DNA of 34,299 nucleotides from Candidatus Thorarchaeota archaeon (GCA_003345595.1 PRDI01000022.1:1-34299); one strand, 5' to 3'; positions 1 to 30,014 are shown, counted from the first letter of the stretch. The notes: a model not told the origin generated them from the letters alone. Numbers and translations are program-made.

Positions 1-2
1 CA

Positions 3-29
3 TCATGACTCATGATCAGTCGTTCAGAC
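3..29 (+). repeat. Partial, degenerate tRNA-iMet 3' fragment (anticodon loop to T-loop)
   Basis: tcatgactcatgatcagtcgttcagac vs consensus tcatgaccctgagatcggtcgttcaaat; acceptor strand missing. Confidence 0.5.
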
Positions 30-278
30 ATGTGCCGAACATTGAAGTCATAGATCCGTGCTCGACCTAGTGGGCGCAGTTGCGTACTTGACATAGCTGC
101 CTACTGTTCCACATTGAGGCGCCTCCTCTTCTTGCGTGTACTCGAAACCCAGCATAAGATGAGGCTTCTCACCACCTAGGTCATCATTCCGGTAAGAATC
201 GTTGCGTAGACAAGGAGTGAATTGACGCTACAATGGCAGCAAGGATACCATTGTAGGACTCTGGGGTTCCCCTTTCGT

Positions 279-331
279 CCCGCAGGACTCATGACCCTGA
301 GATCGGTCGTTCAAACCGCCCCCCGCTACCA
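279..331 (+). repeat. tRNA-iMet(CAT) 3' fragment, att-like copy 1
   Basis: cccgcaggactcatgaccctgagatcggtcgttcaaaccgccccccgctacca: CAT anticodon, T-loop GTTCAAA, ends CCCGCT-ACCA; no 5' acceptor or D-arm upstream. Confidence 0.9.
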
Positions 332-487
332 CTTCTTCCTCTGATGCCATGGTTATCTCGTATTGCACCACTTTAGGACTTCTTGGGAAGAATTCATTAG
401 CAGATTACACGATTCATAGTGAGTTCCCCTCGATGGTTGTTGGAGTATCTCTGAGGTTGTGGAGGATAAGTTCAATGAGGATTCGGA

Positions 488-775
488 GTGAAGATACTGT
501 TGACAAAACATGAGTATCACATTGGAAAGGCGGAAGTTGTCCGTAGCATTGGCATCGGGCTGACTTCAGGGGGAATCTCTGCGATAGTTATGGACATCAT
601 CGGTTTTGTTCTACTTCGTGGCCTGCCTGCGGATATATATGTGGAAATATACGAGGCCTTGCTTCGTCAATTCGTCGCTTTTCTATTCGTTGGTACTGTG
701 ATGTTGATACTTGGAATTGCTATCTTGAAGCAAGTAGGATTCAAGGAAGAATCAAAAGATGTAGTGTCTGTTTAG
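488..775 (+). CDS. Small two-TM membrane protein, hypothetical
   Basis: 95 aa ORF with two hydrophobic segments and a charged C-terminus. Confidence 0.6.
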   Translation: MKILLTKHEYHIGKAEVVRSIGIGLTSGGISAIVMDIIGFVLLRGLPADIYVEIYEALLRQFVAFLFVGTVMLILGIAILKQVGFKEESKDVVSV

Positions 776-833
776 TGGTAGGAAAGGGCGCATCGAGATT
801 GGTTCTGATATGAAGAGAGAGTAGGGATGTATC

Positions 834-1088
834 ATGACCGGGCGCTGGCAGAGGTGTAATGACGACCTTGGAACCGTCGTGATGACGATGTTGGTCATGT
901 GGATCCCCTCCGTGTTTTTCCTATCCCTTCTTGGCCAGCCCATAGTCTTCTCTGAGATCATAGTCCTTTCGTTGTTCAACGCGTGGACTGGCTGGACAAC
1001 AAAGAGGAGGTGGCGTACTCTCGTGCTCACCGTATGCACCTATGATATATATGAAGAGCAAGAATCCGTTAAGCAGTGGAACAATTGA
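834..1088 (+). pseudogene. Truncated paralog of the membrane-protein family at 18296 and 32363
   Basis: EIIVLSLFNAWTGWTTKRRWRTLVLTVCT matches ELLILASLNARTGWVRKKGSGRLVLMVCT and EVIVLYCLNSRTGWVNKRRTRRLVIVISA; similarity stops near 1040. Confidence 0.65.
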
Positions 1089-2420: not shown

Positions 2421-2497
2421 CCCGTGATTCTCCAGATACTGATTGGAACCCAATGTGACATATAGGTTCGCATATCGAGGCTTCTGCGGCAAGTATC

Positions 2498-2549
2498 CAG
2501 CAGAGGTCATGACCTGAGATTGACCGCTCAAATTGACCACCCGCTACCA
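2498..2549 (+). repeat. tRNA-iMet 3' fragment, att-like copy 2
   Basis: cagcagaggtcatgacctgagattgaccgctcaaattgaccacccgctacca followed by ctcttctt. Confidence 0.85.
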
Positions 2550-2731
2550 CTCTTCTTCGGCAAGTATCGAGAACGCTCAGACGCACAGCGCTGAACTTCC
2601 AGAATCGTCGCCTGCCGTTTGTAGGTGCGACTTCTATCGGGGATACTCAGAACCGTGCCGGTAGTCGACACGTTCGCAGGTTCCGCATTCTACGGCCGAG
2701 CCCGATGAGCCACTACTTCGCGCGATTAGGA

Positions 2732-3643
2732 CTACAGAGCACCGAATACTGCGATGAAGGCGAGCATGTCTGCAATTGCGTGAGAGAGCACAGCTCCCCA
2801 GATACTGTCCGACTTCTGGATTGTGTACCCCCATAGAAGGCCGTAGACCAATGCAATCAAGAGCAGAGTCACGAGCGCAACAGGTCCCATGAGTGGCAGC
2901 AGTGGTGCATGGAAAGCCGAGAAGACAAGGGATGTGAAAACAAGGGACGCTCTGGGTCCGAACAGAACCTCATACTTTCTAAGAAAAAGTCCACGGATAA
3001 TCAGCTCCTCCATGAAGCTGTTTGAGAATGCGAATATGAGCATCCATGGAATCCAACCAACCAGTATGTCGATTCCTACGCTTATGGCGAAGCCACCCAT
3101 TACAGCGAAATGCACCAGTTCTACAGGAACAGCCACGAATCCAAGTAGAAGCCCCTTCACCGGCTTCCCGCCTGTCAGATAGAGCGAGTGAAGACTGTCT
3201 TTGGCCGCCAGCATCAATACAATGACAGTCAACACAATCGGCAACGTTTCGGCGAACTTCGCAACTGCAGATCCCGTTGGAGAATCGACTGTAAGACCCG
3301 GAATCAGTTCGTACCAGCCGCCGAAGAGCCAGGCAAACAGAAATCCGAGGGCTACTGCGGTGAATGAGTATGCTATTCTGGAGTAGATTCGTGGAGCTCT
3401 TCGGTAGAGAACGAGTGCTACAACAAAAAGACCAGTAGGCACGATTATCTTGGCTATCAGCCTCGCAGTGGCGTCCATGAAGTAGTTGTACCCAGCAATC
3501 GTATAGACCAAGATGCTCGTCACGAATAGCAGTACGAAAAGAATGATGCGTGCCCCAAGACCACGTGTGGCCAGCATTGTCGCGCTCACACTGTCTGGAG
3601 TCTTATCACTCGTGGTCGAACCCTCTGACATTCTTCGTTTCAC
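2732..3643 (-). CDS. CPBP family (CAAX/Abi-like) intramembrane glutamic endopeptidase
   Basis: EELIIRG, FSAFH and HAIAD motifs; multi-TM. Confidence 0.9.
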   Translation of the reverse strand: MKRRMSEGSTTSDKTPDSVSATMLATRGLGARIILFVLLFVTSILVYTIAGYNYFMDATARLIAKIIVPTGLFVVALVLYRRAPRIYSRIAYSFTAVALGFLFAWLFGGWYELIPGLTVDSPTGSAVAKFAETLPIVLTVIVLMLAAKDSLHSLYLTGGKPVKGLLLGFVAVPVELVHFAVMGGFAISVGIDILVGWIPWMLIFAFSNSFMEELIIRGLFLRKYEVLFGPRASLVFTSLVFSAFHAPLLPLMGPVALVTLLLIALVYGLLWGYTIQKSDSIWGAVLSHAIADMLAFIAVFGAL

Positions 3644-3854
3644 CTGGCTTCATGAATGGATCCTGTACTAAACCTTCGACTCGCAATGCCATCTACTTAT
3701 CATCTCCGGTTCACTGCATATCCTTCCTGATCTCTTTGGTTGATGCATGCGAAGCAAGGTTTGTTCGATTCTATCCGTCACCAGTGATTATAATGTCCCC
3801 AAGAACTCATACGCTTGGCTTATTGCGAGCTTAGGAGTGAAACCGTTCATTGTG

Positions 3855-4008
3855 AGTTGGACAAAGTTGGACACAGGAGTCTTAGTCCTCCCAGAAACGG
3901 CACTGGGGTCGTACTCCTTGGGGCTGGAATGTGCCGAGTCAGCCTCAAAGAAACGTCTGATTCGAGCTATTTAAGCCCCCACTCGAAAGTGTCCAGGATT
4001 GTCCAACT
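3855..4008. repeat. 154-bp element, copy A, with 20-bp imperfect terminal inverted repeats built from tandem 10-mers
   Basis: AGTTGGACAA-AGTTGGACAC ... GTGTCCAGGA-TTGTCCAACT; ungapped homolog at 33861-34014. Confidence 0.9.
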
Positions 4009-4026
4009 TCTACGCAGCTGTTGCAT

Positions 4027-4064
4027 ACCCTGAGATCCGTCGTTCAAATCGACCCCCGCTACCA
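4027..4064 (+). repeat. tRNA-iMet 3' fragment, att-like copy 3
   Basis: accctgagatccgtcgttcaaatcgacccccgctacca followed by tcttcttt. Confidence 0.92.
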
Positions 4065-4245
4065 TCTTCTTTCCAACTATCGCTTCCTGCGGCCATTCGT
4101 GAACCTAGTTCACAGACGAGATTTTCTAAGACTCGGTCCGGTCATGGAGGAGAGGGGTCACCAAGTGAAATGAGTATGGAAACTATGGACCCTATGGCCG
4201 GTCAGTTGATGAATCACGCAGAAGATATATGGATGAGCTTCATTA

Positions 4246-5694
4246 TTGACAAGCGGTTTCCCGAGGGGATTGAACGTGAGAGCCGCACCATTTGTCATTA
4301 TGGTTCTACTTGTGACTTTCCTGACAGTCACGTCCGGGCCGGCGTACTCGACAGAGAAGGATGGCCAAGGTGCAGTCAATGGTGAAACGACGCACACAGC
4401 TGTGACCGCTGGAATCTTGGCCCCACATACGCCCATCAACATAGCCTCTGATGTCGACTTTGCGGACCAAGGATGGCCCGGAAACGGAACCGAGGCGGCC
4501 CCATACGTGATAGAGGGGCTCAATATAACGTCCACAGAGGTGTGCATCAACATCTCAAGCGTGACTGTCCGCTTCGAGATCAGAGACTGTTTCATATCGT
4601 CTCCGGACACATCCTTGAATGATGGGATATACATCGATGGCGGGGACTATTGCTCGATCTCAGGCTGCATTGTTCAGTCACACTTGTCTGGTTTCCACCT
4701 GAACGACTCCCTAAAGTGCAAGCTGACCGGCAACAATGCAAGGGGCAACTCAGAGAGTGGTTTCTATCTGTATTATTCCGGCTTTCCTACACTGACCAAC
4801 AACACTGCGACCGGTAACTCAGGGAGTGGTTTCTATCTGGACTTTTGTACGGCCCTCTGCACGCTTGCAGGCAACAATGCGACCGGCAACTCAGGGAACG
4901 GTTTCTATCTGAATCATTGTGGCAGTAGCATGCTGACCAACAACACTGCGACTGGTAATGCAATCGACGGCTTCGTTCTATACATCCATGGTGGCAATGT
5001 GCTGAGCGACAACACCGCAAACGGCAACGCGGTGAACGGTTTCTATCTGGAAAAGTGGTTGTATGGTGACAGTACGCTGACCGACAATACTGCGACCGGC
5101 AACTCAGAATATGGTGTTCTTCTGGGCCCGAATTCTTCAGGGGATGTCATTTTCCTTAATGTGATCGGACCAAACGGTGTGGCGAATGCTCGGGATCGTG
5201 GATCGGCCAACAAATGGGATGATGATGTGTCATTGGGTAACTACTGGAGCGACTACAACGGTACGGGCGTCTATCCTATCCCTGGAACCGCGGGCAGTGT
5301 GGACAGGTTCCCGTCCAGTATTGAGCCGTCCATCAACCACCCAACGGATATGGAGTATGAAGAAGGCAGCACTGGTCACTCAATCAATTGGACCCCTTCG
5401 TGCCTCCATCCAGACCGATATGAAGTGTACAGAAATGATTCTTTGATAGCCTCTAGTGACTGGGATGGCTCTGACATCACGGTGAGTGTGGACGGTTTCA
5501 CTGCTGGGACGTACAGCTACACCATCATGGTGTTGGATGTCAATGGGTACTTTGCAACTGATGCAGTGATTGTCACTGTGCAGGCGTCAACTACAACAGG
5601 GTTTGACCCAATGATACTGCTTGTGGTTGCCGGTGTCGGGGCAGTCATCGTTGTCATCATCTTGGCGATTGGCCTTAGAAAGAGAAAGGTGTGA
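4246..5694 (+). CDS. Cell-surface protein: NosD-like right-handed beta-helix, Ig-like domain and C-terminal TM anchor
   Basis: N-terminal hydrophobic signal, repeated LTNNTATGNSxxGFYL units, GNYWSDY, and a C-terminal TM followed by RKRKV. Confidence 0.88.
   Translation: MTSGFPRGLNVRAAPFVIMVLLVTFLTVTSGPAYSTEKDGQGAVNGETTHTAVTAGILAPHTPINIASDVDFADQGWPGNGTEAAPYVIEGLNITSTEVCINISSVTVRFEIRDCFISSPDTSLNDGIYIDGGDYCSISGCIVQSHLSGFHLNDSLKCKLTGNNARGNSESGFYLYYSGFPTLTNNTATGNSGSGFYLDFCTALCTLAGNNATGNSGNGFYLNHCGSSMLTNNTATGNAIDGFVLYIHGGNVLSDNTANGNAVNGFYLEKWLYGDSTLTDNTATGNSEYGVLLGPNSSGDVIFLNVIGPNGVANARDRGSANKWDDDVSLGNYWSDYNGTGVYPIPGTAGSVDRFPSSIEPSINHPTDMEYEEGSTGHSINWTPSCLHPDRYEVYRNDSLIASSDWDGSDITVSVDGFTAGTYSYTIMVLDVNGYFATDAVIVTVQASTTTGFDPMILLVVAGVGAVIVVIILAIGLRKRKV
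4720..5112 (+). repeat. Intragenic tandem beta-helix repeats (about 22-24 aa, about 6 copies)
   Basis: Recurrent ctgaccaacaacactgcgaccgg and ggtttctatctg. Confidence 0.8.
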
Positions 5695-5725
5695 GAGCGA
5701 ACGACAGAAGAAAAGTGAGCTGGCA

Positions 5726-5764
5726 ATCCTGGGATCGGTCGTTCAGATCGACCCCTCGCTACCA
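5726..5764 (+). repeat. tRNA-iMet 3' fragment, att-like copy 4
   Basis: atcctgggatcggtcgttcagatcgacccctcgctacca followed by tcttcct; intact T-stem GGTCG/CGACC. Confidence 0.92.
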
Positions 5765-5949
5765 TCTTCCTATGGTTTTCCTTTGAACTACCGATGACCG
5801 ACGGTCCCAGTGACTCCACAGCAACCAAACACATAGACTCTGTCCTTGCCGATACTGGACAGGTCCAAGTTAGTGTCACATCTCGGACAGGCCACAGAGG
5901 TAGACACAATCTCTTGCAGGAGAGTGCCAATCAAAACCTCGCTTCATCT

Positions 5950-7602
5950 TCACGCTAACTCTGAGTAGTTGAGTCTCATTGTGCCGAGAACAGCGATGAC
6001 CAGTCCGACCGTGAAACAAGGCACGCTCCCAAGAACTAAGGCAAGCTGGAAAGCGCCCTCTCTGATGGCAGCCACAGCCCCGAGGAGCATTGAGGCAATG
6101 ATTGTGATCATTGAGATGACGATTGTCACGACAGTGTTCACGGTGAAGGCGCTACTAGAACTACTGTCATATGAGGGATTGAGGGCAGTGATGCCGATGC
6201 CTACCCACAGACATCCTAAAGCGACAGTGTATACGTAGAGCATCGCAGAGAAGGTATCAGATAGTGACAAGTTCAGTAGCCCACCTGCAATTAGAGAGGG
6301 GACGAATGCATAGGGGATGGCAATCAACATGTATGAAACGACTCGTGCGGTGATAAACGTCCTCACCCCTGAAGGAGTGCTCTTCACTATCCAAAGCTGG
6401 TTTCTACTGTCAAAGAGACCGACTCCTCCAAAGATCACCCCTGCTAGCATGCCGAGCATCATACCCATGATGATGGGGGTGATGACTGGCAGCCACACCC
6501 GGTTTCCGACTGGGCCTCCAAGTGGTCCGAACGCCATCACTAGGGCCATCAGAACTGAGAGGAAGAAACCGTATGCTATCTTGGCTACATTCTGAAGTTT
6601 CCTAGTGTAGTCCTTGATAGATGTCACTAAGACCGTGCCGAAGTTCTGGCCAAGAAGACGCCTGAAGAATTTCAGGACGATATTGTCCGGACCAGCCTGA
6701 GCAATCTTCTTGAACCTTGGGCCAGCACCATAGGCAAATACTGAGTCAGCCGCTCGGAAGCCTCCAACGAACAAGAGAACGGTGAAGAGCAGGAGGAGAA
6801 CGATGTCGGCCATTGGACTCAATGAGAGCCAATATGCTTCAAGGTTCATCATAGATGATGCCGGGAGGTTTCCGGTGTAGACTGCAACCCAAGTAAGAAC
6901 ATCTGCACACCATGTTGAAGGGAACAATACCGATGCCTCTGTTCCCATCATCTGGGCAGTGCTTCCCATCCAATACATGACGCAGAATGCCGGGACTGCC
7001 ACAATTGGCACTACTCCCCAGCTCAGTGCCTTCCCGATGTCATCACCTCTTGGAGACTCGCCTATCTTTGCATGCAGCGCCGTGCTCAGGACATTCGAGA
7101 GCCAGATGGTCGAAACTGAGAACAGTATCAGGACAGTGATCATCAAGACTTGGCCGAGTACTGACACACCATATGCATAGGCGAAGGGATAGACAACTAG
7201 CGGCGCAAGGACAGCAACAAGAAGCCCTGTGACCGGCAGCTTGCCCAAGAAGGAACCAAGGAGAACATCGCGAGTCTGCACACCACTGCTGAACAGTATT
7301 TCCCACTGGTCCGTCTTGACATTGTCAAGACTGTTCGAGAGTGGAATGATCAGTACAAACAGCCAAACCGGGAGCATTATTGATCGCATGAATCCGGGAA
7401 GAGAAGTCGACACGAGTAGCCAGAAGGCATCACCGAACCTCGACAGGAGGAGTGAGAATACCAGGGGAAGGATGGCTAACGCCCAGAGGAGGACTGCCCC
7501 GACAAGGAGCAGATACAGGATCCAGCGGGCACGATGCAGTCTAGAGGTCCTGACAAGGAACTCTGCCTTTGCGATAGCCCACCACCGACCCCTCAAGCTC
7601 AC
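5950..7602 (-). CDS. Putative ABC exporter permease (multi-TM)
   Basis: 550 aa with many TM helices; 4-bp overlap with the upstream ABC ATPase. Confidence 0.8.
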   Translation of the reverse strand: MSLRGRWWAIAKAEFLVRTSRLHRARWILYLLLVGAVLLWALAILPLVFSLLLSRFGDAFWLLVSTSLPGFMRSIMLPVWLFVLIIPLSNSLDNVKTDQWEILFSSGVQTRDVLLGSFLGKLPVTGLLVAVLAPLVVYPFAYAYGVSVLGQVLMITVLILFSVSTIWLSNVLSTALHAKIGESPRGDDIGKALSWGVVPIVAVPAFCVMYWMGSTAQMMGTEASVLFPSTWCADVLTWVAVYTGNLPASSMMNLEAYWLSLSPMADIVLLLLFTVLLFVGGFRAADSVFAYGAGPRFKKIAQAGPDNIVLKFFRRLLGQNFGTVLVTSIKDYTRKLQNVAKIAYGFFLSVLMALVMAFGPLGGPVGNRVWLPVITPIIMGMMLGMLAGVIFGGVGLFDSRNQLWIVKSTPSGVRTFITARVVSYMLIAIPYAFVPSLIAGGLLNLSLSDTFSAMLYVYTVALGCLWVGIGITALNPSYDSSSSSAFTVNTVVTIVISMITIIASMLLGAVAAIREGAFQLALVLGSVPCFTVGLVIAVLGTMRLNYSELA

Positions 7603-8369
7603 TTCCTCCAGCTAAGGAGCTTCGACCGATCCACTTCTCCGCCAACAACCCTCAAGTATGCATCTTCAAGGTTCTTCGCTCCGACCTGCTGAACTATCTC
7701 ACTGGGCGGGCCAATTGTAGTCAGTGAGCCTTCATTCAGTATGCCTATGATGTCGCAGCTGTCTTCTGCGAATCTAGTCATATGAGTACACATGAAGAAC
7801 GTCGTATTGGTTTCCTCTGCCAGCGCGAGGATCAAGTCGCGCACCAGCACGCCAGCCGCTGGATCGAGCCGCGAAGTCGGTTCATCTAGGAATACCAGCC
7901 TCGGCTCATGCAGAAGTGTTGATGCCACCAGCACCTTCTGTTTCATGCCCGATGAGTATGACTCGAGAAGGTCGTTCTGACGGCTCTCAAGACCAAGAAT
8001 GCCAAGAAGCGAGTCGATCCTCCTGTGGAGTTCTTCGCCGCCCTTTCTCCTCAGAGCTCCAACGAACTCAAGGAACTCGACAGCAGATAGCTTTGAGTAG
8101 AGACCCGGGGACTCGGGCAGAAGTCCTGTCGCCTCTTTCACTCTGTTCCGATTCTTGCTCACATCGAACCCGCACACAGTAGCTGTGCCGCTACTCTGTC
8201 TGAGGAGTCCCGAGAGGATTCTTACGGTCGTTGTCTTCCCGGCACCATTCGGGCCCAAGAGCCCGAAACGACTGCCCTCCATCACTGTGAGACTCAGGTC
8301 CTTGACAGCCTGAATGGATCCAAACATCTTGCTCAGCAAATGAGTCTGTATGCTGATTCCGTTTCCCAC
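7599..8369 (-). CDS. ABC transporter ATP-binding protein (ABC-2 / drug-export type)
   Basis: GPNGAGKTT, YSSGMKQK, LVFLDEP and CTH motifs. Confidence 0.95.
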   Translation of the reverse strand: MGNGISIQTHLLSKMFGSIQAVKDLSLTVMEGSRFGLLGPNGAGKTTTVRILSGLLRQSSGTATVCGFDVSKNRNRVKEATGLLPESPGLYSKLSAVEFLEFVGALRRKGGEELHRRIDSLLGILGLESRQNDLLESYSSGMKQKVLVASTLLHEPRLVFLDEPTSRLDPAAGVLVRDLILALAEETNTTFFMCTHMTRFAEDSCDIIGILNEGSLTTIGPPSEIVQQVGAKNLEDAYLRVVGGEVDRSKLLSWRK

Positions 8370-8631
8370 TATCGATACCCATCAGCAGTCCCAAGAAGAT
8401 TGTATATAAGAGGTTCCAGCGGCGCAAGACATTGTGCTGAACGCAGGTACTAGTTGCCCAGTTTTCTGAGAACCATCTCGCGTCAGTACTTGTGCATTGG
8501 ATGCTACAACAGTCAAGTAGCCTGCCGGCATTCGATTCTGTTCTCTCGGCCCAAAAAAGGGAATCTATTTCAGAGGGTCTGCACAACGAATTTCCTGAAT
8601 CTTCGGATTCAAACCAAAGGAGGTTAGAATA

Positions 8632-9426
8632 TTGGCTGGATCAAGCGGATCAACCGGAATGATGGCTCTCGCGCTGATAGTCGGACTGATTATCGGCTTT
8701 GGGGCAGGCTTCTTTGCACCGACATTGATTCCACCGACTGATGATTACGACAGAATCAAGGCGCGTGGTACGATCATTGTCGGAACAAACTCAGGATGGC
8801 CGCCATTCGAGATGTTCAACACGACCACAAGTACATTGTACGGGTTCGATATTGACCTTGCTGAGCTTGTGGCTGATTACCTTAACGTGACTGTTGAATG
8901 GATTGACATGGACTTCGGTGCTCTGATAGGCGCATGTCAGGCAGGTACAATCGATATGATCGCTTCAGCGACCTTCATAACTCCAGCGCGTAATGCGGTT
9001 CTTCAACCGACGACATGGTACATTAGGACAAACGAAGTCATTGTTGTCAAGGCCAATTCAACACTCGCCATCGGCAACCTCACCGATCTCGTCGGACACG
9101 ACGTGGGAGTTCAAACAGGAACAGTTGAGGACGAAGAACTGTCAGCCATCTTGAGCGAAACAGATCTACATAGATATCCTCTTACTGAAACATTGTTCCA
9201 AGATTTGGAGTCAGGCGCTCTTGAGGCGGTGTATGTGGACGAGCCGATTGTTGGTTTGTACAGCACTGTCTATGCTATCAAGATAATATTCACAGTGCCA
9301 GCTCCGCCAACAGCGTTCTACATACGGTATGGTAGCGACAGGCTTGCTGCAGCAGTAAACAGTGCCATTGCTCTGGGATTCGCAGACGGAACAGTGGATG
9401 CCCTAATTGCAAAGTGGTTTGGGTGA
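8632..9426 (+). CDS. Polar amino acid ABC transporter substrate-binding protein
   Basis: WPPFE, GFDIDL, VGVQTGT and final KWFG; N-terminal TM; AGGAGGT Shine-Dalgarno before TTG. Confidence 0.92.
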   Translation: MAGSSGSTGMMALALIVGLIIGFGAGFFAPTLIPPTDDYDRIKARGTIIVGTNSGWPPFEMFNTTTSTLYGFDIDLAELVADYLNVTVEWIDMDFGALIGACQAGTIDMIASATFITPARNAVLQPTTWYIRTNEVIVVKANSTLAIGNLTDLVGHDVGVQTGTVEDEELSAILSETDLHRYPLTETLFQDLESGALEAVYVDEPIVGLYSTVYAIKIIFTVPAPPTAFYIRYGSDRLAAAVNSAIALGFADGTVDALIAKWFG

Positions 9427-9432
9427 AAGTGA

Positions 9433-10125
9433 GTGCAAGAGTCGCAGGGATTATTCGAGATCCTAATACTGATTATGACTAGAGGCCTCCCTACGGCTCT
9501 TGCTCTCACATTTCTTTCTTTGTTGATTGGATTCTTGGTAGGGATTGGACTTGCCTTGATGCGTGTATATGGTCCGATTGAACTGCGATGGATCTCATCA
9601 GGCTATGAGAAGATATTCCGAGGGATTCCTCTGCTTGTCCTTCTCTTCATATTTGCTATTGGATTGTTGAGGCTCTTCTTATGGACAGGCTCTCTGTTCA
9701 ATGCATTATTCACTGCTTCCATTTTTGCCCTTGCCTTAAGGAGTGCAGCATATCAGTCTGAGATATTCCGTGGCGCGATAATGTCTGTCGATCCCGGTCA
9801 GATGATGGCCGCGCGATCATTAGGAATGACTGACTATCAAGCAACTCGGAAGATTATCCTGCCACAGGCACTGCGACTCTCCGTACCGGGGTGGACAAAT
9901 GAATATGCAGTCGTCATCAAAGACACGTCATTGGTTAGCGCAATCGGCGTTCCTGAACTGATATATCATGGCATGGCATTTAGCTGGACCTATCCAGCAC
10001 TCTTTCTTGGAATCATCACTGTGACTTCAATCATCTATTTCCTCTTTACCTATCCTGTCACAAAATACGTCGGGGAGAGTATGACTTCGAAACTCAGAAG
10101 TCTTGGACTAGGCGGCGGCAGATAA
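9433..10125 (+). CDS. Amino acid ABC transporter permease
   Basis: [31 protein letters not shown] and IKDTSL motifs. Confidence 0.94.
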
Positions 10126-10889
10126 TGGTAGCAGTCCTAGAAGTACGAGACATATGGAAAGCGTATGACACACTTGAGGTGCTAAAAGGGATATCCTTTG
10201 ATGTGCAGAAAGGAGAGGTGAAGGTGATCTTTGGACCGAGTGGATCGGGCAAGAGCACTCTCTTAAGAGTCATCAACATGCTGACCCCTCCCGACAAAGG
10301 AGAGGTATTCCTTTGCGGGCAAAGCTTGATGGACAGTAAGGCAGATCTCTGTAAATTGCGGACCCGTATTGGCTTTGTTTTCCAGAACTTCAATCTCTTT
10401 GCACATCTGAAGGCAATAGACAACGTCAGTATAGGACCTCGCTTGGTGCTTGGCATGACAAAGGAAGAGGCAAATGACGCGGCACACAGGGCTCTAGAGA
10501 AAGTCCACATGAGTAACTGGAGCCATCACTATCCAGCTCAGCTCAGTGGAGGACAACAACAACGTGTGGGAATTGCCCGGTCAATAGCAATGAATCCCGA
10601 AGTGATCTTGTTTGATGAGCCAACTTCTGCACTTGACCCAGAGTTGATTGGCGAAGTGCTGCAAGTCATGCTCGATCTTGCCCAGGAAGGAACAACCATG
10701 GTCGTCGTGACGCACGAAATGGGATTTGCGCGTGCTGTTTCAAGTGAAATGATCTTCATGGATAAGGGCGTTGTCGTTGAGAAAGGTACGCCCCAACATT
10801 TCTTCCAGGATGCCCAATCTGAGAGAGCAAAACACTTCCTCAGAAAGTTGGAAGTCTTGTATGGACAGAGCGAGACTGAGAAAACCTGA
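10125..10889 (+). CDS. Amino acid ABC transporter ATP-binding protein (GlnQ-like)
   Basis: [29 protein letters not shown] and VTHEMGFAR motifs. Confidence 0.96.
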
Positions 10890-10907
10890 GTAGCCGGAGG
10901 AATTCAA

Positions 10908-11651: not shown

Positions 11652-11770
11652 TGAGAGAGGACCAGTTGCTCCTTTTCCCCGTACCATTCATGCTGGCATG
11701 GCCGAGTCAGGACAAACATCTGTGGTGCACCAACGCCGGGCTCAGCAATCCGTTCCTCGGCCTAGGTCCT

Positions 11771-17875: not shown

Positions 17876-18039
17876 GGTTGTTTCTCCTGTGATTGTCTCT
17901 CACGTGATTACCAAGTCAATCGTAGCCCCCGGTCCAATTCAAGATGACTGTTCACTACCTTGCGCTTAACTTGACAGGCCATACTTTATGCACCAGAGCA
18001 AGGACGGTGGTTGCTGCTTAGGCGTATTGCGGGCAATAA

Positions 18040-18295
18040 ATGGTGGGTCACTCACACAAGAAGCCTGATTAGACGGGGCGCCTGACGACTCTCCACACCC
18101 GTACCTTGCCCGGTCTTTCTGCGTCGTCTTCCGGAAGATTCAATGACACAGGAGGAGCATATCATCCAAGTCCATGGGTCGTGCGTTCGGAGGGCTCAGT
18201 AGACCGTCAGATCCTGTTCTGGGCAGGGGACTGTTGTGAGAAATGGACCGTTTCGGAGAGATGCGTCACGGTTCGGCAAGATTCGAGATGAGGAT
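18040..18295 (+). repeat. Conserved ~255-bp upstream segment, copy A
   Basis: Near-ungapped homolog at 32108-32362; about 54/67 identical at the 5' end (hand count). Confidence 0.8.
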
Positions 18296-19054: not shown

Positions 19055-19055
19055 A
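19048..19055 (+). promoter_or_regulatory. TATA box of a probably leaderless hydrolase gene
   Basis: TTTATAAA ending 22 nt before ATG 19078. Confidence 0.55.
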
Positions 19056-19077
19056 ACCACGGAAGTGCCAATGAAGT

Positions 19078-19884
19078 ATGGTTGAGGTTATTCCCACCGA
19101 GTTCACCTCAGAAGGAGCGACGGTCAGAGGAAACTTCGTCATTCCAAGTGGAGACGGACCCTTCCCAGGTATCTGCAAGTTCCATGGAATTCCAGGTCGA
19201 CCTGACCAAGTCAGCGGTCTCGCAACAAGGCTTGCCGAGGCTGGTTTCGCAGTTTTGACTTTTGACTTCAGGGGCTTCAGGCGGAGTGATGGAATATTCT
19301 CTCTTGCGGGCGAGGTCAAAGATGCCAGGGCGGCCATCTCACACCTGCTGAAGTCGGACCTGACAGCCAAATCATGGTCCGGAGTGTACGGTGAAAGCTT
19401 TGGTGCAGCAGTTGCAGTCTGTGCCGCTGCTGAGGATAAGCGCGTCAAAGCGCTCTGCCTGCGAGCACCAGTCTATGACACGCTCTGGTTCTCTCAGTCG
19501 CCATTGGTTCGTCCCTCTGCTGATCAGATTGTTGAAATAGATTTCACTCAGATTCACGGCGTCGAGGACCCAGAGATTCGGGCAGGAATGTTTCACAGAA
19601 TGGTGGAAGATGCCAAGGTACATAATCCCATGAACGAGATCTCCAAGATATCACCACGCCCATTACTGGTTGTACATGGTACTGATGATGTAGAAATTGA
19701 CTTGGCAGGAGTAAGGCGCCTCTATGAGCTTGCTGGTGAGCCGAAGGATTTGGTCATTGTGGAGGGCGCGGATCACAATCTTACAAATCCTCGTGCATCT
19801 GAGATAACCTTGAGCACCGAAGTTGAATGGTTCAAGAAACAATGGATGAATCGTCGAAGAAGGTCGAATAGACGAAAAACCTGA
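19078..19884 (+). CDS. Alpha/beta fold hydrolase
   Basis: HG, FDFRGF..SDG, GESFG nucleophile, HGTDD and GADH motifs. Confidence 0.93.
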   Translation: MVEVIPTEFTSEGATVRGNFVIPSGDGPFPGICKFHGIPGRPDQVSGLATRLAEAGFAVLTFDFRGFRRSDGIFSLAGEVKDARAAISHLLKSDLTAKSWSGVYGESFGAAVAVCAAAEDKRVKALCLRAPVYDTLWFSQSPLVRPSADQIVEIDFTQIHGVEDPEIRAGMFHRMVEDAKVHNPMNEISKISPRPLLVVHGTDDVEIDLAGVRRLYELAGEPKDLVIVEGADHNLTNPRASEITLSTEVEWFKKQWMNRRRRSNRRKT

Positions 19885-20020
19885 GCCGGGATTTCTATCG
19901 AAAGCCGAGGCATCCGTTATGACTCTTCTGAGAGAGCATCTGCTTCATGCTATTCAGATAATGACGGCCTGTGCGGTTGTCCTCTGTATTGCCGCTCCAT
20001 ATGGGCAGGAATCATCATAG

Positions 20021-20073
20021 CCGCGGGGCTTATGACCCTGAGATCGATTGTTCAGATCTGTCTCTCGCTTCCG
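20021..20073 (+). repeat. tRNA-iMet 3' fragment, att-like copy 6 (degenerate)
   Basis: ccgcggggcttatgaccctgagatcgattgttcagatctgtctctcgcttccg followed by cttcctct. Confidence 0.85.
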
Positions 20074-20244
20074 CTTCCTCTCTGTTCCGTTCATAGTCCA
20101 TCCTATTAGATACATGAATCATACGCCGCTTGCTCCGAACACTCTAGACGCTGGACGGTACTTGTCTGTGATGAGGACCAGCGTCATGACCACTGTACAG
20201 ACCACTAGAGCCTCGGAGAGGACAGCAAGGGAGAAGCTACTGTC

Positions 20245-21473: not shown

Positions 21474-21493
21474 TCGACCCCCCACTCCCATCT
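21474..21493 (+). repeat. Short tRNA-iMet 3'-terminal fragment (partial copy)
   Basis: tcgaccccccactcccatct vs tcgaccccccgctaccatct, 18/20 identical. Confidence 0.6.
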
Positions 21494-21539
21494 CAGCCGT
21501 CTGTTCGTTTGTTGCGATTCCATGCACAGACCATTCAGA

Positions 21540-22936: not shown

Positions 22937-22975
22937 ACCCGTGAATCGGTCTTCAGAATAGGCCGCCCGCTGGCA
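22937..22975 (+). repeat. tRNA-iMet 3' fragment, att-like copy 7 (degenerate)
   Basis: acccgtgaatcggtcttcagaataggccgcccgctggca followed by cttctttcc. Confidence 0.75.
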
Positions 22976-23003
22976 CTTCTTTCCCTTTGATATCCAACTG
23001 CAA

Positions 23004-25005: not shown

Positions 25006-25249
25006 AAGCGTCTACGATACTGTAGCGGGACTGCTCTTCAGAGATAAAACCCTTGTCGGATTTCGCCGCTGTCAGATGGGGAGAACGCGTGCAACTGAAG
25101 AGGAACCACCAAGTCGGACCCACTCTCACTCGAATATCTAGTATGACTAGGTGATGAAAGACTCTTATAGCGACCTGCCTAGCTCTTGAGTCAGGATTTA
25201 GCAACTGACAACGGGTGTGAAGAGAAGAGTGGTGGCAAAAGCAGGGGCC

Positions 25250-27262
25250 ATGGCGATACCATATGGCGTGTCTCTTGAGGGCCTCATCAATGTCATACGC
25301 GCCTGGAATCGGGCACAGGGATATGCAAGACCTCTGAAGGCAGAGCAGGTCGCAGAACGGATAGAAACCGGTGCTAAGATCGCGAGTAGAGCGAAGGTAG
25401 TATGCAATCAGAGTTCATTCCTGATACAGCTCGGGGTTTTGGTGAAAGAGGGCCAATCGAATCGCCTCACCGAAGCCGGGCAGGAAGTGGCCCGTGCCGC
25501 AGACTCCCCGCTTCAGGAGGAATTCAACAGTCTGATGAAGAAACTGATTCTTGAGTGGAAGCAGGTACAGCCTCTGATTGAGTTCGTGCGTAATAGAGGA
25601 AAGGTTTCAAGAGGTGAAATGTTCGACCGGGTCCTTGAGGAAGCCAAGAAGTCGAAGAGTACTACCAATGCTGTAATGGGCGGCAACACGTTTGTTGAAC
25701 TCCTTCAGCGGGCAGGAATCCTGGTAGCGGAAGATGACTCTGTGAGCCTAGCAGGCGGACTTCCTCGTGCCGCGGTGAAACCGTTGACACCTGAGGTGTC
25801 TAGAACTGTAGAAACACCCGAGGCGCTCAGACCAGAGGAAGTGCCCGAAACCCCCGAAGCAGTAGAAACACCCGAGATTCCCGAGGTTCTAGAAACATGC
25901 GAGGTTGCCACACCAGAAGAGGTTCCTGAGACCCTCAAACCTGTGGAAACAGTTGGGGGTCCCACGTCAGAGGAAGCACCTGAGGTTTCCAAACCCGTAG
26001 AGGTACCGGCGTCCTCCGAAGCTGTGGAAGCACCTGAGGTCATCAAGCCTGTAGAAACACCTGAGGCGCCTGCACCAGAAGAGGCGCCTGAGATTATCAA
26101 ACCTGTCGAGGGACCTGAGGAGCCCACACCAGAGAAAACACCCGAGGCCGCCATGCCGGAAGAAGTGCCGGAGGTTTCCACGCCAGAAGAGGCCCTCGAG
26201 ATTCCGACACCAGAGGAAGAACCCGAGGCTCCCACGCCAGAAGAAGCACCTGAGGCCCTCAAACCTGTGGAGGAACCTGAACCCGCCAAAGCTGTAGAGG
26301 AAGCCGAGGTCTCCACAAAAGAGGAAGCGCCTGAAGTTCCCAAACCTGCAGAAACACCTGAGGAGCCCACACCAGAAAAAGATCCTGAGGCCCCCACACG
26401 AAAAGAGGCGCCCGAGATTTCCAAACCGGTAGAGGTAGCTGAGGAGCAGAAGCAAGAGAGAGTGGAGGAATCATCTGAAGAGAAAGAACATCGCCTTCCG
26501 GGAGCGAGATACCTGTTGGGGCTGGTTGTGATATATGCTGCAATATACGCCCAGTACATACTACCAAGCATGGGTCTCGTGTTTGACATGCTGTTGGTGT
26601 ATGGAGTCCCGATAGTTGTCATCGGCTATCTCTGGGGTCGTCAGATTCTGCATCGATCTCTGAATAAGATGTATGCAGCGGTGAAGTATGGGTTTGCTTC
26701 CTATGGCGGCTTTACTGCCCTGGGCTATCTGATATCGCTGGTGCTAGTGATCCTGCTTATCCTATTTGACCCATCCTCTCTCAATCTTCTACAAAATCCA
26801 GATCCTGTACTGAACACCACACCTGAGAATGCTTGGCTCCTAGTGTGGCTCTCTTTCATTGTTGTGGGCCCAGCAGAGGAGTTTCTCTTTCGAGGTTTCA
26901 TCTATGGTGGATTACTCAACATGTTCGGCAATCGTCACTGGCTGTCGTTGGCATTTCTATCATCAATCCTCTTCGCAGCGGTTCACCTGTACTATGCGCT
27001 TGACTACGGTATCGTATCAGTGATCATGTTCACTCAACTGATTTCCTTCGGCATGGCAATGGCCGTTTCGTACTACCTTTCTGGAGGAAACCTACTGGTT
27101 CCCGCCTTTATCCATGGTCTATTTGATGCAACCGGATTCCTCACGATTGCCTTTTCATTCGAACTTGGGGCTAGTCTTAGGCTGGACTTTGTCTTTGTCT
27201 CTCTGGCTGTTCTTCTATACGTGTCGCTGCAACGGCTCGGAAGCAGGAAGGTTTCATACTAG
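25250..27262 (+). CDS. Fusion protein: N-terminal winged-helix-like region, Pro/Glu-rich repeat linker, C-terminal CPBP protease
   Basis: EEFLFRG, FAAVH and HGLFD motifs; about 230 aa of PE/EEAPE/KPVE repeats; FLIQLGVL...RLTEAG wing-like motif. Confidence 0.85.
   Translation: MAIPYGVSLEGLINVIRAWNRAQGYARPLKAEQVAERIETGAKIASRAKVVCNQSSFLIQLGVLVKEGQSNRLTEAGQEVARAADSPLQEEFNSLMKKLILEWKQVQPLIEFVRNRGKVSRGEMFDRVLEEAKKSKSTTNAVMGGNTFVELLQRAGILVAEDDSVSLAGGLPRAAVKPLTPEVSRTVETPEALRPEEVPETPEAVETPEIPEVLETCEVATPEEVPETLKPVETVGGPTSEEAPEVSKPVEVPASSEAVEAPEVIKPVETPEAPAPEEAPEIIKPVEGPEEPTPEKTPEAAMPEEVPEVSTPEEALEIPTPEEEPEAPTPEEAPEALKPVEEPEPAKAVEEAEVSTKEEAPEVPKPAETPEEPTPEKDPEAPTRKEAPEISKPVEVAEEQKQERVEESSEEKEHRLPGARYLLGLVVIYAAIYAQYILPSMGLVFDMLLVYGVPIVVIGYLWGRQILHRSLNKMYAAVKYGFASYGGFTALGYLISLVLVILLILFDPSSLNLLQNPDPVLNTTPENAWLLVWLSFIVVGPAEEFLFRGFIYGGLLNMFGNRHWLSLAFLSSILFAAVHLYYALDYGIVSVIMFTQLISFGMAMAVSYYLSGGNLLVPAFIHGLFDATGFLTIAFSFELGASLRLDFVFVSLAVLLYVSLQRLGSRKVSY
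25790..26480 (+). repeat. Intragenic low-complexity tandem repeats (TPEEAPE / KPVE)
   Basis: Recurrent ccagaagaggcgcctgag and aaacctgtagaaacacc. Confidence 0.85.
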
Positions 27263-27294: not shown

Positions 27295-27714
27295 CTACAG
27301 AACAGGACTCTCCGCGTCCTGCTCAAGACGAATCTCTCTGCGAGTTCTCCACCCGCTAAAGGCCATATGCAGGAAGAAGACCGAGGAGACACATATCACT
27401 GCAATTGTGCCCCACACCATGAATGAAACAAGAGGCGAGATGTCCTCAATCGGATAGACCCATTCCCCGCCACCAGTACCCACCCAGACAAGATAGAACA
27501 CCGCATCAGGAACCGTGATAGTGGCTATCAAGAAGGGCGTAAGGAAAACAGAGCCAAAAACCCACGCCGGAAACAATCCGGCCGAAAGACATCTTGATGA
27601 GCAGTAGAAGTTTCGGCCGTCCTTCCAGCGAAATATCTCAATAGGTTTTCCACACCACTTGCAGAGCCGAACAGACTGAGGCTGCTCCCCTTGGCGCGCC
27701 CTTAGAAACCTCAT
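27295..27714 (-). CDS. Small membrane protein with N-terminal Zn-finger-like motif
   Basis: CKWCGK...YCSSRC followed by two TM helices. Confidence 0.7.
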   Translation of the reverse strand: MRFLRARQGEQPQSVRLCKWCGKPIEIFRWKDGRNFYCSSRCLSAGLFPAWVFGSVFLTPFLIATITVPDAVFYLVWVGTGGGEWVYPIEDISPLVSFMVWGTIAVICVSSVFFLHMAFSGWRTRREIRLEQDAESPVL

Positions 27715-27888
27715 CGACTCTTCATAGTACTGGAACGTACTAGAATGTATTGTGCGTCGCTTCTAGGCTTGGACGCCGCCAGCATTATGATGCTGACTTC
27801 TGACCAGATGCATCGGACTCACTTGCCTTCTCGTCGGAGCACCACATATCCACAGATGCGCTCATCTGCCTCTTGCAGGCCACCGTCA

Positions 27889-27973
27889 ATCCCGTAGGGC
27901 TCATGCCCCCAGCTCAATAGGAACTTCAGAGTGAAACCCCGAATTGGTCATTCAAATCCATCCCTGGTCACCA
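27889..27973 (+). repeat. tRNA-iMet 3' fragment, copy 8, with a 30-nt insert at position 37/38
   Basis: atcccgtagggctcatg [27906-27935] accccgaattggtcattcaaatccatccctggtcacca followed by tctctct. Confidence 0.8.
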
Positions 27974-28000
27974 TCTCTCTCTGCTTGCATTCGAAACGGC

Positions 28001-28771
28001 TCAATCATCCGAGTCACCTTGAGTCCTTATCTCGTTCCAGACTCGAGAAGCGTGCTTCTTGCAGGTAACCGCATGACGATGCCAACCACCCATTCCAGCC
28101 CTCTTTCCAGACCATGTTCGGAAGTTCTCACTCAATAGTGGAAGACAATGTTGGCTTTCTATGGGTGAACTCAGTGGGACCGCCTTCTTGAACAGACCCA
28201 GCGTGTCCTCCTTGCCGGCAATCCAAAGATCAGCCGGACTCTTGCAGTAGAAATGCGGATTCGACCTGAAGCGAGCCTGATCTTCGTCTGGTGCATGCTC
28301 GAAGCCCTCTTGAGTGAACCACCGTTCGATCTCAAACGCGCCCACAATGTATCCACCCCATTCAGGGTTTACTTGTGGATTGCGAAGAGACTTGTCAATA
28401 CTCCTGTAGTCAAGGGTAGCCAAGAAGAGAAGAATGTCGCCTTGTTGTAGCGATTCGAGTAGTGGTTCGTATCCATATCCTCGTTTCACGTGCCCATAGG
28501 TTCGAAACTTGAAGTCTGGATCGTTGTGAGCCCTCATCCGGGCCAGTTCAGGTATCAGATCTGAAAGACTTGCATTTCTGAACTCCCAGAGGTTTGCGTA
28601 CTTTGAACGAGTGTAGTCGCGCACCCGCAATTCTGCATACGTCGGCAACCGCCTGCAATTCCAACCAACCGCAGGAATCGGAAAGAACACGAAGCTTCTG
28701 TCGGGAAACACCAACCCTCTCATCCCGCCGCTCAACCCGACGTTTATCACTACCAGCTTCAATAGATTCAA
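28001..28771 (-). CDS. Nmad3-like (nucleotide modification-associated domain 3) protein
   Basis: INVG...RGLVFPDRSFVFFPIP, PTYAEL, HNDPDF..RTYG, GDILLFLATL, WGGYIVG and NPH; family recognised from memory. Confidence 0.7.
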   Translation of the reverse strand: MNLLKLVVINVGLSGGMRGLVFPDRSFVFFPIPAVGWNCRRLPTYAELRVRDYTRSKYANLWEFRNASLSDLIPELARMRAHNDPDFKFRTYGHVKRGYGYEPLLESLQQGDILLFLATLDYRSIDKSLRNPQVNPEWGGYIVGAFEIERWFTQEGFEHAPDEDQARFRSNPHFYCKSPADLWIAGKEDTLGLFKKAVPLSSPIESQHCLPLLSENFRTWSGKRAGMGGWHRHAVTCKKHASRVWNEIRTQGDSDD

Positions 28772-29121
28772 CCCTTCTCTTGAAATGGAACACCACAGAG
28801 TGTCTTGAGCCTTACTCTGCCAGTCAAGACAGTGGCGCTCTGCCTAGAAACGGAATTGATCGCCAAACTCGACAGCCCGCCATGACTTATCTTGTGATCT
28901 CGATGAATCATGAAATCAAGATCCACGTACAGATGAGATATCTGCCAGCCAGCTGTGCCACCAGTACATGGAACTCGATGACTTGGTCCGGCTCTTTCGA
29001 GCCAAATGACAACAGCGGCTAACAGCGAGGCTCGCGACAGGTACGTCATAGCCTGTGACCGATGTCAAGGTTTATTAGAAAATGCAGTAGTTCACCATAG
29101 TTAAATGAGGAGCTGATTCCG

Positions 29122-29808
29122 ATGTCCCAGAAAGCAAAGAGAACGAAACAGGTCATTGAGAAGAGAGCAACCATGAGAATCGCGCTGATTGGAATCGGTC
29201 ATGTCGGCAGAGCTCTGGCGGAGCACTGGAGCAAGGCGGGTCATGAGATCTGGCTGGCTAGTGACAGAAAGGATTCACCAAGCGTCGAGGAAGCTCTGAG
29301 GGCACATCCAGACTGGAAGCGTGCAGGTGTGCAGGAAGCGGTGAATCAGGTCGATGCGGTCGTACTTGCGGTTCCTTTTGATGCCGTGTCGAGTGCCATC
29401 TCTGGTGTGCGCTTCGGTGGCAAACTCCTGATCGACTGCACCAATCCAATCGGTCCAGGATTCACCCACGCTCTGAAGAGCGAACGCTCAGGCTCTGAGT
29501 TTGTCCAGGAATTGGTGCCAGATGCACATGTAGTCAAAGCCTTCAACATCTATGGGTATGAGAACCTCGTTCAGGTCCCGCAGGACGGTTCAGGCCGACG
29601 ACCCGTGATGTTAATGGCTGGCAATGATTCCGGTGCCAAGGCAGTGGCTTCGAACCTGATTGCCGACGTCGGTTTTGAAGCAAAAGACACTGGTCCTCTC
29701 AATCAGGCTCTGCATCTGGAGCACATGACTCTGCTCTGGGTCAAGATGGTCAGGAACCAAGGTCATACGTCACATTTCGTATGGGCCTATGTGGAACAGA
29801 AGCCATGA
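29122..29808 (+). CDS. NADPH-dependent F420 reductase-like (F420_oxidored family) dinucleotide-binding enzyme
   Basis: IGIGHVG, VLAVP, IDCTNP, VVKAFN and DTGPL..A..LE motifs. Confidence 0.92.
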   Translation: MSQKAKRTKQVIEKRATMRIALIGIGHVGRALAEHWSKAGHEIWLASDRKDSPSVEEALRAHPDWKRAGVQEAVNQVDAVVLAVPFDAVSSAISGVRFGGKLLIDCTNPIGPGFTHALKSERSGSEFVQELVPDAHVVKAFNIYGYENLVQVPQDGSGRRPVMLMAGNDSGAKAVASNLIADVGFEAKDTGPLNQALHLEHMTLLWVKMVRNQGHTSHFVWAYVEQKP

Positions 29809-29941
29809 GGACAGCTTCTTTGAGTCTGAACATCTTGGTAACTAGGAAGCGATATGGCAGCTGACCTTGGCTAGCCCGCCTGCTTCTTGGACCGCCAACA
29901 ATCGCTCCTCGTCAACATTGCTAGTACTCGTCTTCAGAGTG

Positions 29942-30014
29942 AGGACTCGCCCATCGCTCACCAGCAAGATTGAGAAATCTGATATTGGTCCTTCAGATTG
30001 ACCGTCTGCCGCCA
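29942..30014 (+). repeat. tRNA-iMet 3' fragment, copy 9 (most degenerate), with a related intron-like insert
   Basis: aggactc [gcccatcgctcaccagcaagattgaga] aatctgatattggtccttcagattgaccgtctgccgcca followed by tct. Confidence 0.7.

Follow-up and report, generated by a model that had tools for sequence, protein, structure and literature searches.

Fragments of an initiator tRNA gene in a Thorarchaeota contig

The stretch of DNA analysed here, called the window, is the entire 34,299-nucleotide contig C22 (PRDI01000022.1:1-34299) of a Candidatus Thorarchaeota archaeon (GCA_003345595.1, here G000), a short-read metagenome-assembled genome (MAG) of 129 contigs and 2.73 Mb that is 83% complete. It consists of short gene units, or cassettes, separated by a repeat of ~55-65 nt that corresponds to positions ~22-76 of initiator tRNA-Met (tRNA-iMet) followed by a ~10-nt CT-rich downstream tail. 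A second contig of the same genome, C42, carries more of them, and the two together span at least 67 kb with no fewer than 35 fragments. The window is best explained as part of a hypervariable island, at least 67 kb long, at the single tRNA-iMet gene of one Thorarchaeota genus. The genus is represented by four genomes, G000, G001, G002 and the long-read genome G003.

The fragments were located with a hidden Markov model (HMM) built from six window copies, and nhmmer was run with it across the whole 2.73-Mb genome. The copies in the window are as follows.

14-28, + strand: weak partial copy, a T-arm piece (nhmmer E 0.27 within arrays)
276-338, + strand: tRNA-iMet 3' fragment, intronless, positions ~22-76 plus tail (nhmmer E 8e-14 genome-wide)
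~2055-2085, + strand: decayed fragment, acceptor strand and tail, T arm lost; aligns to the intact fragment G002:C13:10526-10567
2492-2559, + strand: tRNA-iMet 3' fragment (nhmmer E 1.7e-11)
~3835-3850: decayed copy exposed by comparison with relatives
4019-4073, + strand: tRNA-iMet 3' fragment (nhmmer E 1.2e-11)
5714-5773, + strand: tRNA-iMet 3' fragment (nhmmer E 1.2e-12)
17219-17287, + strand: tRNA-iMet 3' fragment (nhmmer E 1.6e-13)
20016-20083, + strand: tRNA-iMet 3' fragment, anticodon mutated to TAT (nhmmer E 2.1e-13)
21474-21495, + strand: possible remnant, acceptor strand and tail, intergenic (E 180, chance level; consensus-like by eye)
22945-22984, + strand: decayed fragment (nhmmer E 0.035 within arrays)
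27886-27982, + strand: decayed fragment with the 37/38 intron retained (5' piece 27886-27905, 3' piece 27937-27982)
29960-30018, + strand: most decayed fragment, the last recognisable one in the window (nhmmer E 0.15 genome-wide)

A preliminary description of the window, made from the sequence alone, had reported most of these. Its six strong copies (at 279, 2498, 4027, 5726, 17226 and 20021) are all nhmmer matches on the plus strand, and those that it placed at 22937, 27889 and 29942 are decayed but credible copies (22945-22984, 27886/27937 and 29960). Its three partial copies fared less well. The one at position 3 (14-28) is weak and has a counterpart on C42, window 1-340 being 93% identical to C42rc:19033-19371 with the 14-28 piece present in both; the one at 21474 is also weak and scores at chance level; and the one at about 34021 was rejected, being the end of a dispersed ~180-bp miniature inverted-repeat transposable element (MITE) and not a piece of tRNA. 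The intron-bearing copy at 27886-27982 is built like the C42 copy that ends at 26616, and the G002 fragment to which the decayed copy at ~2055-2085 aligns forms the left edge of a cassette common to the window and G002.

ARAGORN and Rfam called no tRNA in the window. Thus all window copies lack the tRNA 5' part, as had been described, and their homology begins at tRNA position ~22. Both programs miss fragments and intron-bearing intact genes alike, and intact genes were spliced by hand. Decay along the array, which might indicate age, is suggestive in the window and absent in G003, and no use was made of it. A 10-nt direct repeat, GGCAAGTATC, flanks the fragment at 2498-2549 (window 2484-2574); it is not general among the fragments. 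An 8-mer common to both flanks was found for 3 of 55 fragments against 1.6 expected, which rules out a target-site duplication as a general feature; the fragment is therefore not itself a transposing unit.

The intact tRNA-iMet gene

The intact gene was not assembled in G000. In G003 it is the first copy on a 120-kb contig, at G003:C10:4598-4739 (L003, L013), and contains two introns, one of 33 nt in the D loop and one of 30 nt at position 37/38. Other intact two-intron genes lie in the metagenome loci L124 (2305-2445) and L188 (minus strand, from 11897). ARAGORN identifies the G003 and G024 intact genes as tRNA-Met(CAT) once they are spliced in silico, and the cloverleaf has an A1-U72 pair and three G-C pairs in the anticodon stem (G29-31:C39-41). 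The CAT anticodon, A1-U72 and the three anticodon-stem pairs of the congener gene bear out the initiator identity that had been read from the repeat consensus.

The fragments differ from the resident gene in two respects. About half of them are without the 37/38 intron and some keep it. In addition, a T-loop variant, TTCAGAT (G58), is common in the fragments and absent from five of five intact genes seen, which is consistent with a crossover on the 3' side of the T loop. This would fit a fragment T arm that was never part of a working tRNA.

The non-canonical D-loop intron ends just 5' of the start of the attachment-site (att) homology at position ~22, and the 37/38 intron sits midway in that homology. 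In an array-free genus, g7, the tRNA-iMet gene has the 37/38 intron only. It is an old idea that tRNA introns protect tRNA genes against integrating elements, and the intron layout seen here may be said to agree with it.

A single locus with co-oriented copies

Significant nhmmer matches are confined to two of the 129 G000 contigs, C22, with all copies on the plus strand, and C42 (32.7 kb), with ~25 copies, all on the minus strand; the next-best matches elsewhere in the genome are at chance level. A metagenome scan set of 78 loci (516 kb, 216 fragments) contained no strand-mixed locus. When 40 relatives were searched for the pattern, each of the four genomes of the genus proved to have several copies, all co-oriented; another genus had single copies, and the rest of the family had none.

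The anatomy of the locus is best seen in G003:C10, where 15 co-oriented fragments lie between the tRNA (4598-4739) and position 26675 and a conserved flank that matches G000 contig C90 comes next. The same layout, with the intact tRNA at the head of the array, is found in L124 and L188. All three loci thus have an intact tRNA at one end and a co-oriented displaced fragment at the other, one of the marks of a tRNA island in the Islander sense, and the expectation of the preliminary description that an intact tRNA-iMet gene precedes the copies in the same orientation was borne out in each. The upstream flank and the tRNA itself are conserved (70% to G003; 97% between L124 and L188) while the cassettes differ. 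With different small cassettes at the same locus and partial-tRNA repeats between them, the arrays also have the features of additive flexible islands, a descriptive category and not a mechanism.

A 139-residue gene at 27295-27714 on the minus strand matches G003:C10:26649-27068 by blastp and tblastx. Because this is the last G003 cassette, between the last fragment and the conserved flank, C22 probably represents the end of the G000 array far from the tRNA, with C42 nearer to it. Metagenome contigs L159 and L160 each carry cassettes of both, so C42 and C22 belong to one system. The median spacing of fragments is 1051 bp in C42, mostly with one open reading frame (ORF) per unit, and 2.5 kb in the window, which includes one 11.4-kb multi-gene unit. 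For all 181 spacings the median is 1409 bp, and 53% are of 1.5 kb or less.

None of the other G000 tRNAs has a fragment array. The tRNA-Gly(GCC) gene at G000:C30:7944-8015 is accompanied on its contig by two extra copies of its 3' end, at 838-909 and 3091-3119, which may be a small second fragment site. A scan of public genomes with the fragment returned mostly single tRNA-iMet genes in many archaea. Viral contigs gave zero matches to the fragment core; thus no virus or plasmid bearing the attP (the att site of an incoming element) was found.

Exchange of single cassettes between populations

The fragments mark the points at which related arrays diverge. Over the 2.45 kb that lead up to the 3' end of the tRNA, L124 and L188 have 97.1% identity; beyond it they have zero cassettes in common. 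Among 442 ends of blocks of at least 88% identity, 36.7% fall on fragments, against 4.8% for random positions (7.6x). The content of the array therefore varies between close populations with breaks at the repeats, as the preliminary description had foreseen.

Eight block pairs are single cassettes that match from fragment to fragment at 96-98% identity and have different neighbours. For example, the cassette C42rc:12523-13597 occurs in L195, L172 and L159. Sediment metagenomes of the Ga03152xx series have cassettes in common with the arrays at 97-99%. L159 carries in order cassettes that match C42rc at 12.5k, 21.3k and 17.4k and then C22 at 2.1k, with identities of 97.8, 90, 78 and 90.7%. This order differs from that in G000, and the cassettes differ in age, which indicates that they were acquired and moved individually. 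Similarly, window cassette 2560-3834 is homologous to G002 from fragment to fragment with unrelated neighbours.

Since the order of cassettes differs between populations, serial insertion at the tRNA alone is insufficient, and single cassettes must leave and re-enter. Of the earlier proposal that about 10 successive integrations at one tRNA-iMet site built the array, the anchoring at the tRNA thus stands; the scale is larger (at least 35 fragments), and serial insertion alone does not account for the reordering. That interpretation was right in kind, underestimated the scale and is partly supported, the mechanism being one that we infer.

Position of the joint

The joint between a cassette and its neighbour was mapped with non-redundant fragment pairs that share the 250 nt upstream and differ downstream (24 pairs) or the reverse (14 pairs), and unrelated pairs served as the baseline. 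The 38 pairs are mutually related and not phylogenetically independent. The mismatch frequencies were as follows.

Positions 22-43: upstream-shared 0.184, downstream-shared 0.333, baseline 0.451
Positions 44-65: upstream-shared 0.068, downstream-shared 0.081, baseline 0.115
Positions 66-76: upstream-shared 0.215, downstream-shared 0.069, baseline 0.224
Tail: upstream-shared 0.612, downstream-shared 0.074, baseline 0.634

The downstream cassette thus brings positions 66-76 and the tail with it, whereas 22-43 lean to the upstream side and 44-65 are too conserved to inform. Position 58, which is polymorphic in the T loop, shows no linkage on the downstream side (0.36, with a baseline of 0.34). 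With position 58 unlinked and positions 66-76 linked, the linkage appears, from these 38 related pairs, to switch between positions 58 and 66, and the individual alignments agree. Sublocation classes within tRNA genes, reportedly set out by Williams in 2002, include an asymmetric one at the 3' end. A joint at the 3' edge of a long conserved core would be expected for site-specific recombination and not for homologous recombination, an argument that stays indirect since the pairs are related.

Search for the recombinase

No match to the tyrosine recombinase family PF00589 was found in G000, G001 or G002. G003 has one 403-residue tyrosine recombinase (PF00589), on another contig and unlinked to the array, and no homologue of it was found in G000 except for a match to its Zn ribbon. 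A custom HMM made from 37 tyrosine recombinases of this archaeal family gave a best E of 0.013 in six-frame translations of the ~680 kb of array DNA searched for enzymes. SSV-type integrase (PF16795), large serine recombinase (PF07508), Y1 transposase, Cas1 and reverse transcriptase were not found in the four genomes of the genus, and small resolvase-type genes are present in G003 and G001 only, distant from the arrays. The G003 units nearest the tRNA and the upstream flank, which contains a HerA-like gene and ORFs without assigned function, had no Pfam recombinase and no PF00589 match, and the ESM Atlas returned nothing usable for the two ORFs adjoining the G003 tRNA. Thus the integrase that the preliminary description had proposed to look for was not found near the tRNA, in the arrays or elsewhere in G000 with PF00589, the custom HMM or the other families.

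Of the 61 genomes of the Thorarchaeota family f1, only 24 encode a tyrosine recombinase (PF00589), and among the 23 high-quality ones only 8 do; a universal XerA-type resolvase is thus not detectable in many family members. TnpB-like genes (PF07282) number 37 in G003, one of them just past the array (G003:C10:27923-29251); TnpB is not an integrase. In G000 no PF07282 match exceeds the curated cut-off and one weak match lies below it, a low count that probably results from the collapse of repeats in the assembly.

Cassettes and their genes

The cassettes of the window whose genes could be assigned or matched to relatives are the following.

1076-2068, + strand: luciferase-like monooxygenase in cassette 339-2054 (Pfam PF00296, E 7e-47; paralogue in a C42 cassette)
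2133-2540, - strand: 135-residue ORF in cassette 2086-2491 (86% to G002:C13:10552-10949, 90.7% to L159)
2732-3643, - strand: CAAX (Rce1-like) protease in cassette 2560-3834 (Pfam PF02517; 84% to G002:C13:705-2019)
4246-5694, + strand: NosD/beta-helix protein in cassette 4074-5713 (Pfam PF05048, PF13229; paralogues in C42 cassettes)
5774-17218: large multi-gene unit with two ABC transporter sets, methyltransferase, beta-lactamase-like protein, acyltransferase and DUF998 (Pfam)
17288-20015: cassette with RibD_C reductase, 272-residue membrane protein and alpha/beta hydrolase (Pfam; paralogue families)

The context of cassette 2086-2491 is different in G002 and in L159. Within the large unit 5774-17218 no fragment was detected by nhmmer. 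Part of this unit (8464-11680) is 93% identical to G001:C64, and its methyltransferase gene (12275-13176) is 83% identical to G002:C13:4809-5710, where it has the opposite orientation relative to the fragments.

Overall, the cargo includes luciferase-like monooxygenases, CAAX proteases, NosD/beta-helix proteins, TPR and LRR proteins, MFS and ABC transporters, hydrolases, a methyltransferase and Nmad3, to which related arrays add REase-ARP, HEPN/AbiV and PD-(D/E)XK proteins. Searches of the array ORFs against Pfam and PHROGs gave cargo and defence families only among the 25 top families listed, and no replication module. ORFs of at least 100 residues are evenly divided between the strands, with 13 on the plus and 15 on the minus strand in C22, 14 and 14 in C42 and 10 and 10 in G003. 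As genes are oriented either way, each cassette presumably has its own promoter. The G+C content of the cassettes equals that of the genome.

A family of membrane proteins of 175-188 residues with two Zn ribbons is encoded at C42rc 3974-4501 and 30998-31528 and at G003:C10:22747-23313, with a remnant at window 5728-5908. Its final six codons and stop (GSGGSI*) come from the antisense strand of the adjoining tRNA fragment. It was considered as the recombinase and rejected; it has two transmembrane segments and no match to a catalytic family, and looks like paralogous cargo. Another unusual protein, of 681 residues (25217-27262), has a Pro/Glu-rich repeat encoded by ~25 tandem 27-nt units at window 25789-26469 and a C-terminal CAAX-protease (Rce1-like) domain, and its N-terminal part recurs in the first G003 cassette.

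The MITE, of ~180 bp with a strongly folding body, is present in 14 copies on 13 contigs of G000 at 83-97% identity, one of them at C42:2978-3163. Two copies lie in the window.

3842-4026: MITE with terminal inverted repeat GTTGGACAA...TTGTCCAAC, inserted into the fragment that follows (4019-4073), within its intron part
33848-34040: second MITE copy, 83% identical to 3842-4020 and to 12 other genomic copies

Two MITE copies are located directly 5' of the 3' exon of a tRNA fragment, and one lies beyond the G003 array (~39.2 kb).

Mechanism and alternatives

The favoured explanation is an integron-like, tRNA-anchored cassette system that operates by site-specific recombination with an enzyme encoded elsewhere, for which the probability is put at roughly 0.58; homologous recombination is the main rival. 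The cassettes would usually be single-gene units with a median spacing of ~1.0-1.4 kb, each bounded by a copy of tRNA ~22-76 and ~10 nt more. A cassette would leave as a circle with one complete tRNA(22-76) look-alike acting as attP, and the circle would re-enter at the tRNA gene, or at another fragment, through site-specific recombination. With the crossover at the 3'-end sublocation, the last ~11 nt of the tRNA would be replaced and the gene would stay intact. The recombinase would act in trans from outside the cassettes, and might be encoded on an unbinned element, in an unassembled part of the genome, or belong to a new family. A more specific form, possible although less likely than not, is an integron analogue built on another principle, in which a tRNA(22-65) look-alike would be recognised through the T-arm hairpin, the joint would be fixed at 65/66, and the extra-cassette enzyme would lie outside known integrase and transposase families.

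Several points weigh against site-specific recombination by an enzyme in trans. No recombinase of any searched family is present in the ~680 kb of arrays or in G000. Approximately half of the block ends are off any recognisable fragment, and neither a circular cassette nor an empty site was observed in the assembled sequences. The joint mapping is limited by the relatedness of the pairs, the uninformative stretch 44-65 and the partial upstream linkage of 22-43. The inverted methyltransferase gene in the G002 array shows that not every rearrangement goes through the fragments. The tRNA look-alike that reaches 45 nt to the 5' side of the joint is not needed to restore the tRNA, an unusual feature by the standard of classical att sites. 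Finally, the G000 array is tied to a tRNA-iMet gene solely via its relatives, as this MAG, 83% complete, is without the intact gene.

The missing enzyme also speaks for an integrase-free additive island in which RadA-dependent homologous recombination moves the cassettes and the ~55-nt fragments serve only as portable homology. Pop-out between direct repeats would then give circles and deletions, and the DNA of kin would be patched in by crossovers within fragments. The nearly invariant ~25-nt core of the fragments suits such a process, as do the sporadic occurrence of tyrosine recombinases in the family (24 of 61 genomes) and the agreement of cassette and genome G+C, a sign that closely related cells exchange DNA; in Ca. 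Actinomarinales, additive islands are known that have direct repeats of tRNA and no named enzyme (PMC7771536). However, crossovers by homology should spread over the 45-nt stretch, whereas the switch appears to lie at the 3' edge of the core (65/66), with ~11 nt of tRNA homology left downstream, and the T-loop polymorphism shows no downstream linkage. Nor does homology alone account for how new genes gain a fragment. Exchange by homologous recombination is judged possible, though rather doubtful.

Another reading takes the array as a graveyard of formerly autonomous tRNA-integrating elements (tycheposon-, SSV- or pTN3-like) that accumulated at tRNA-iMet and whose integrase and replication genes were later deleted. 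Serial integration with partial tRNAs and degenerate elements is documented (bioRxiv 10.1101/2020.12.28.424599; archaeal elements PMC6563490), and some units, such as 5774-17218, are large and multi-gene. This origin is nevertheless unlikely: neither an integrase gene nor a remnant of one came out of the six-frame searches of the arrays, the spacings are short and the C42 units mostly hold one ORF, single-gene units of ~1 kb are exchanged whole between populations (96-98% identity), and the distal fragments of G003 are as well preserved as the proximal ones. An origin at the RNA level, in which the fragments are tRNA-like processing or terminator signals or reverse-transcribed spliced tRNA, would account for the half of the fragments that are without the 37/38 intron of the resident gene and for the strong conservation of the T arm and acceptor end. 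Yet the genes beside the co-oriented fragments are evenly divided between the strands, no reverse transcriptase is present in the four genomes of the genus, some fragments retain the intron, and the fragments mark the breakpoints of DNA exchange between populations, which makes such an origin very improbable.

Significance

At least 2.5% of the genome (at least 67 kb of 2.73 Mb) is given over to a library of single accessory genes that is reshuffled rapidly and attached to the only initiator tRNA gene. The library holds transporters, surface and membrane proteins and hydrolases, with defence nucleases in related arrays. It offers a concrete route of gene gain for Asgard archaea, whose large, bacteria-enriched repertoires matter to models of eukaryote origin. 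The apparently fixed joint and the lack of a known recombinase point to an enzyme that awaits discovery and that could be a site-specific recombinase of a new, tool-like kind. The array also bears on the intron-protection idea, as the lineage that carries it has, in the D loop, an additional intron immediately 5' of where the att homology begins.

Comparison with known systems

Foreign DNA is said to accumulate at tRNA genes of Sulfolobus chromosomes and to leave tRNA-derived repeats there, as She and colleagues reportedly found in 2001. Those insertions are described as few and large and as having partitioned SSV-type integrase genes, whereas no PF16795 match was found in the four genomes here. 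More generally, an element that integrates into a tRNA gene restores the gene and leaves a displaced fragment of it, and elements become stacked when the site is used repeatedly (PMC4383910; PMC6563490). Tandem tRNA islands are thus already known. The literature search found no paper on such arrays in Thorarchaeota or other Asgard archaea, and the dense, integrase-free Asgard form is, as far as found, unpublished. The new aspects are the density, the single-gene units, the lack of an integrase, the apparently fixed 65/66 joint and the host lineage.

The Islander-type tRNA islands (PMC4383910) have in common with the Thorarchaeota arrays an intact tRNA with co-oriented displaced 3' fragments, newer material next to the tRNA and, as it appears, a crossover at the 3' end by which the gene is regenerated. 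They carry an integrase, normally a tyrosine recombinase, which is found in none of the Thorarchaeota units. The arrays differ further in their ~1-kb, mostly single-gene units, in the tens of fragments per locus, in the individual reordering of units and in an att look-alike that reaches 45 nt to the 5' side of the joint. The tycheposons of Prochlorococcus (bioRxiv 10.1101/2020.12.28.424599) resemble the arrays in using few tRNA targets, in pushing older material inward, and in their partial tRNAs and niche or defence cargo. A tycheposon brings its own tyrosine or large serine recombinase and in many cases a replication module (primase, helicase or polymerase), and a genome has one or two such elements; here neither module was found, the fragments are ~10x denser and the host is an Asgard archaeon. 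The additive flexible islands (Ca. Actinomarinales, PMC7771536; Alteromonas, Methylophilaceae) are similar in having small, strain-variable cassettes at tRNA genes and no named enzyme. They are bacterial and have few repeats each, in contrast to the at least 35 fragments at one tRNA, the mapped joint and the fragment-to-fragment exchange described here.

Integrons, which have been reported in Archaea too (PMC9668308), are the closest in function, with mostly one-gene cassettes that carry their own site and are excised, re-inserted and reordered at a fixed platform. An intI gene lies beside the integron platform, whereas the G003 tRNA flank and first cassettes have no PF00589 match. The attC sites of integrons are imperfect palindromes of diverse sequence and the sites of the array are highly conserved direct copies of tRNA-iMet 22-76; integron cassette genes are mostly co-oriented and promoterless, being read from a promoter in the platform, and the genes here are on either strand with no common promoter logic. 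Unlike in integrons, the platform here is an essential tRNA gene. Both the integron-like reading and the likeness to tycheposons put forward in the preliminary description are judged fair.

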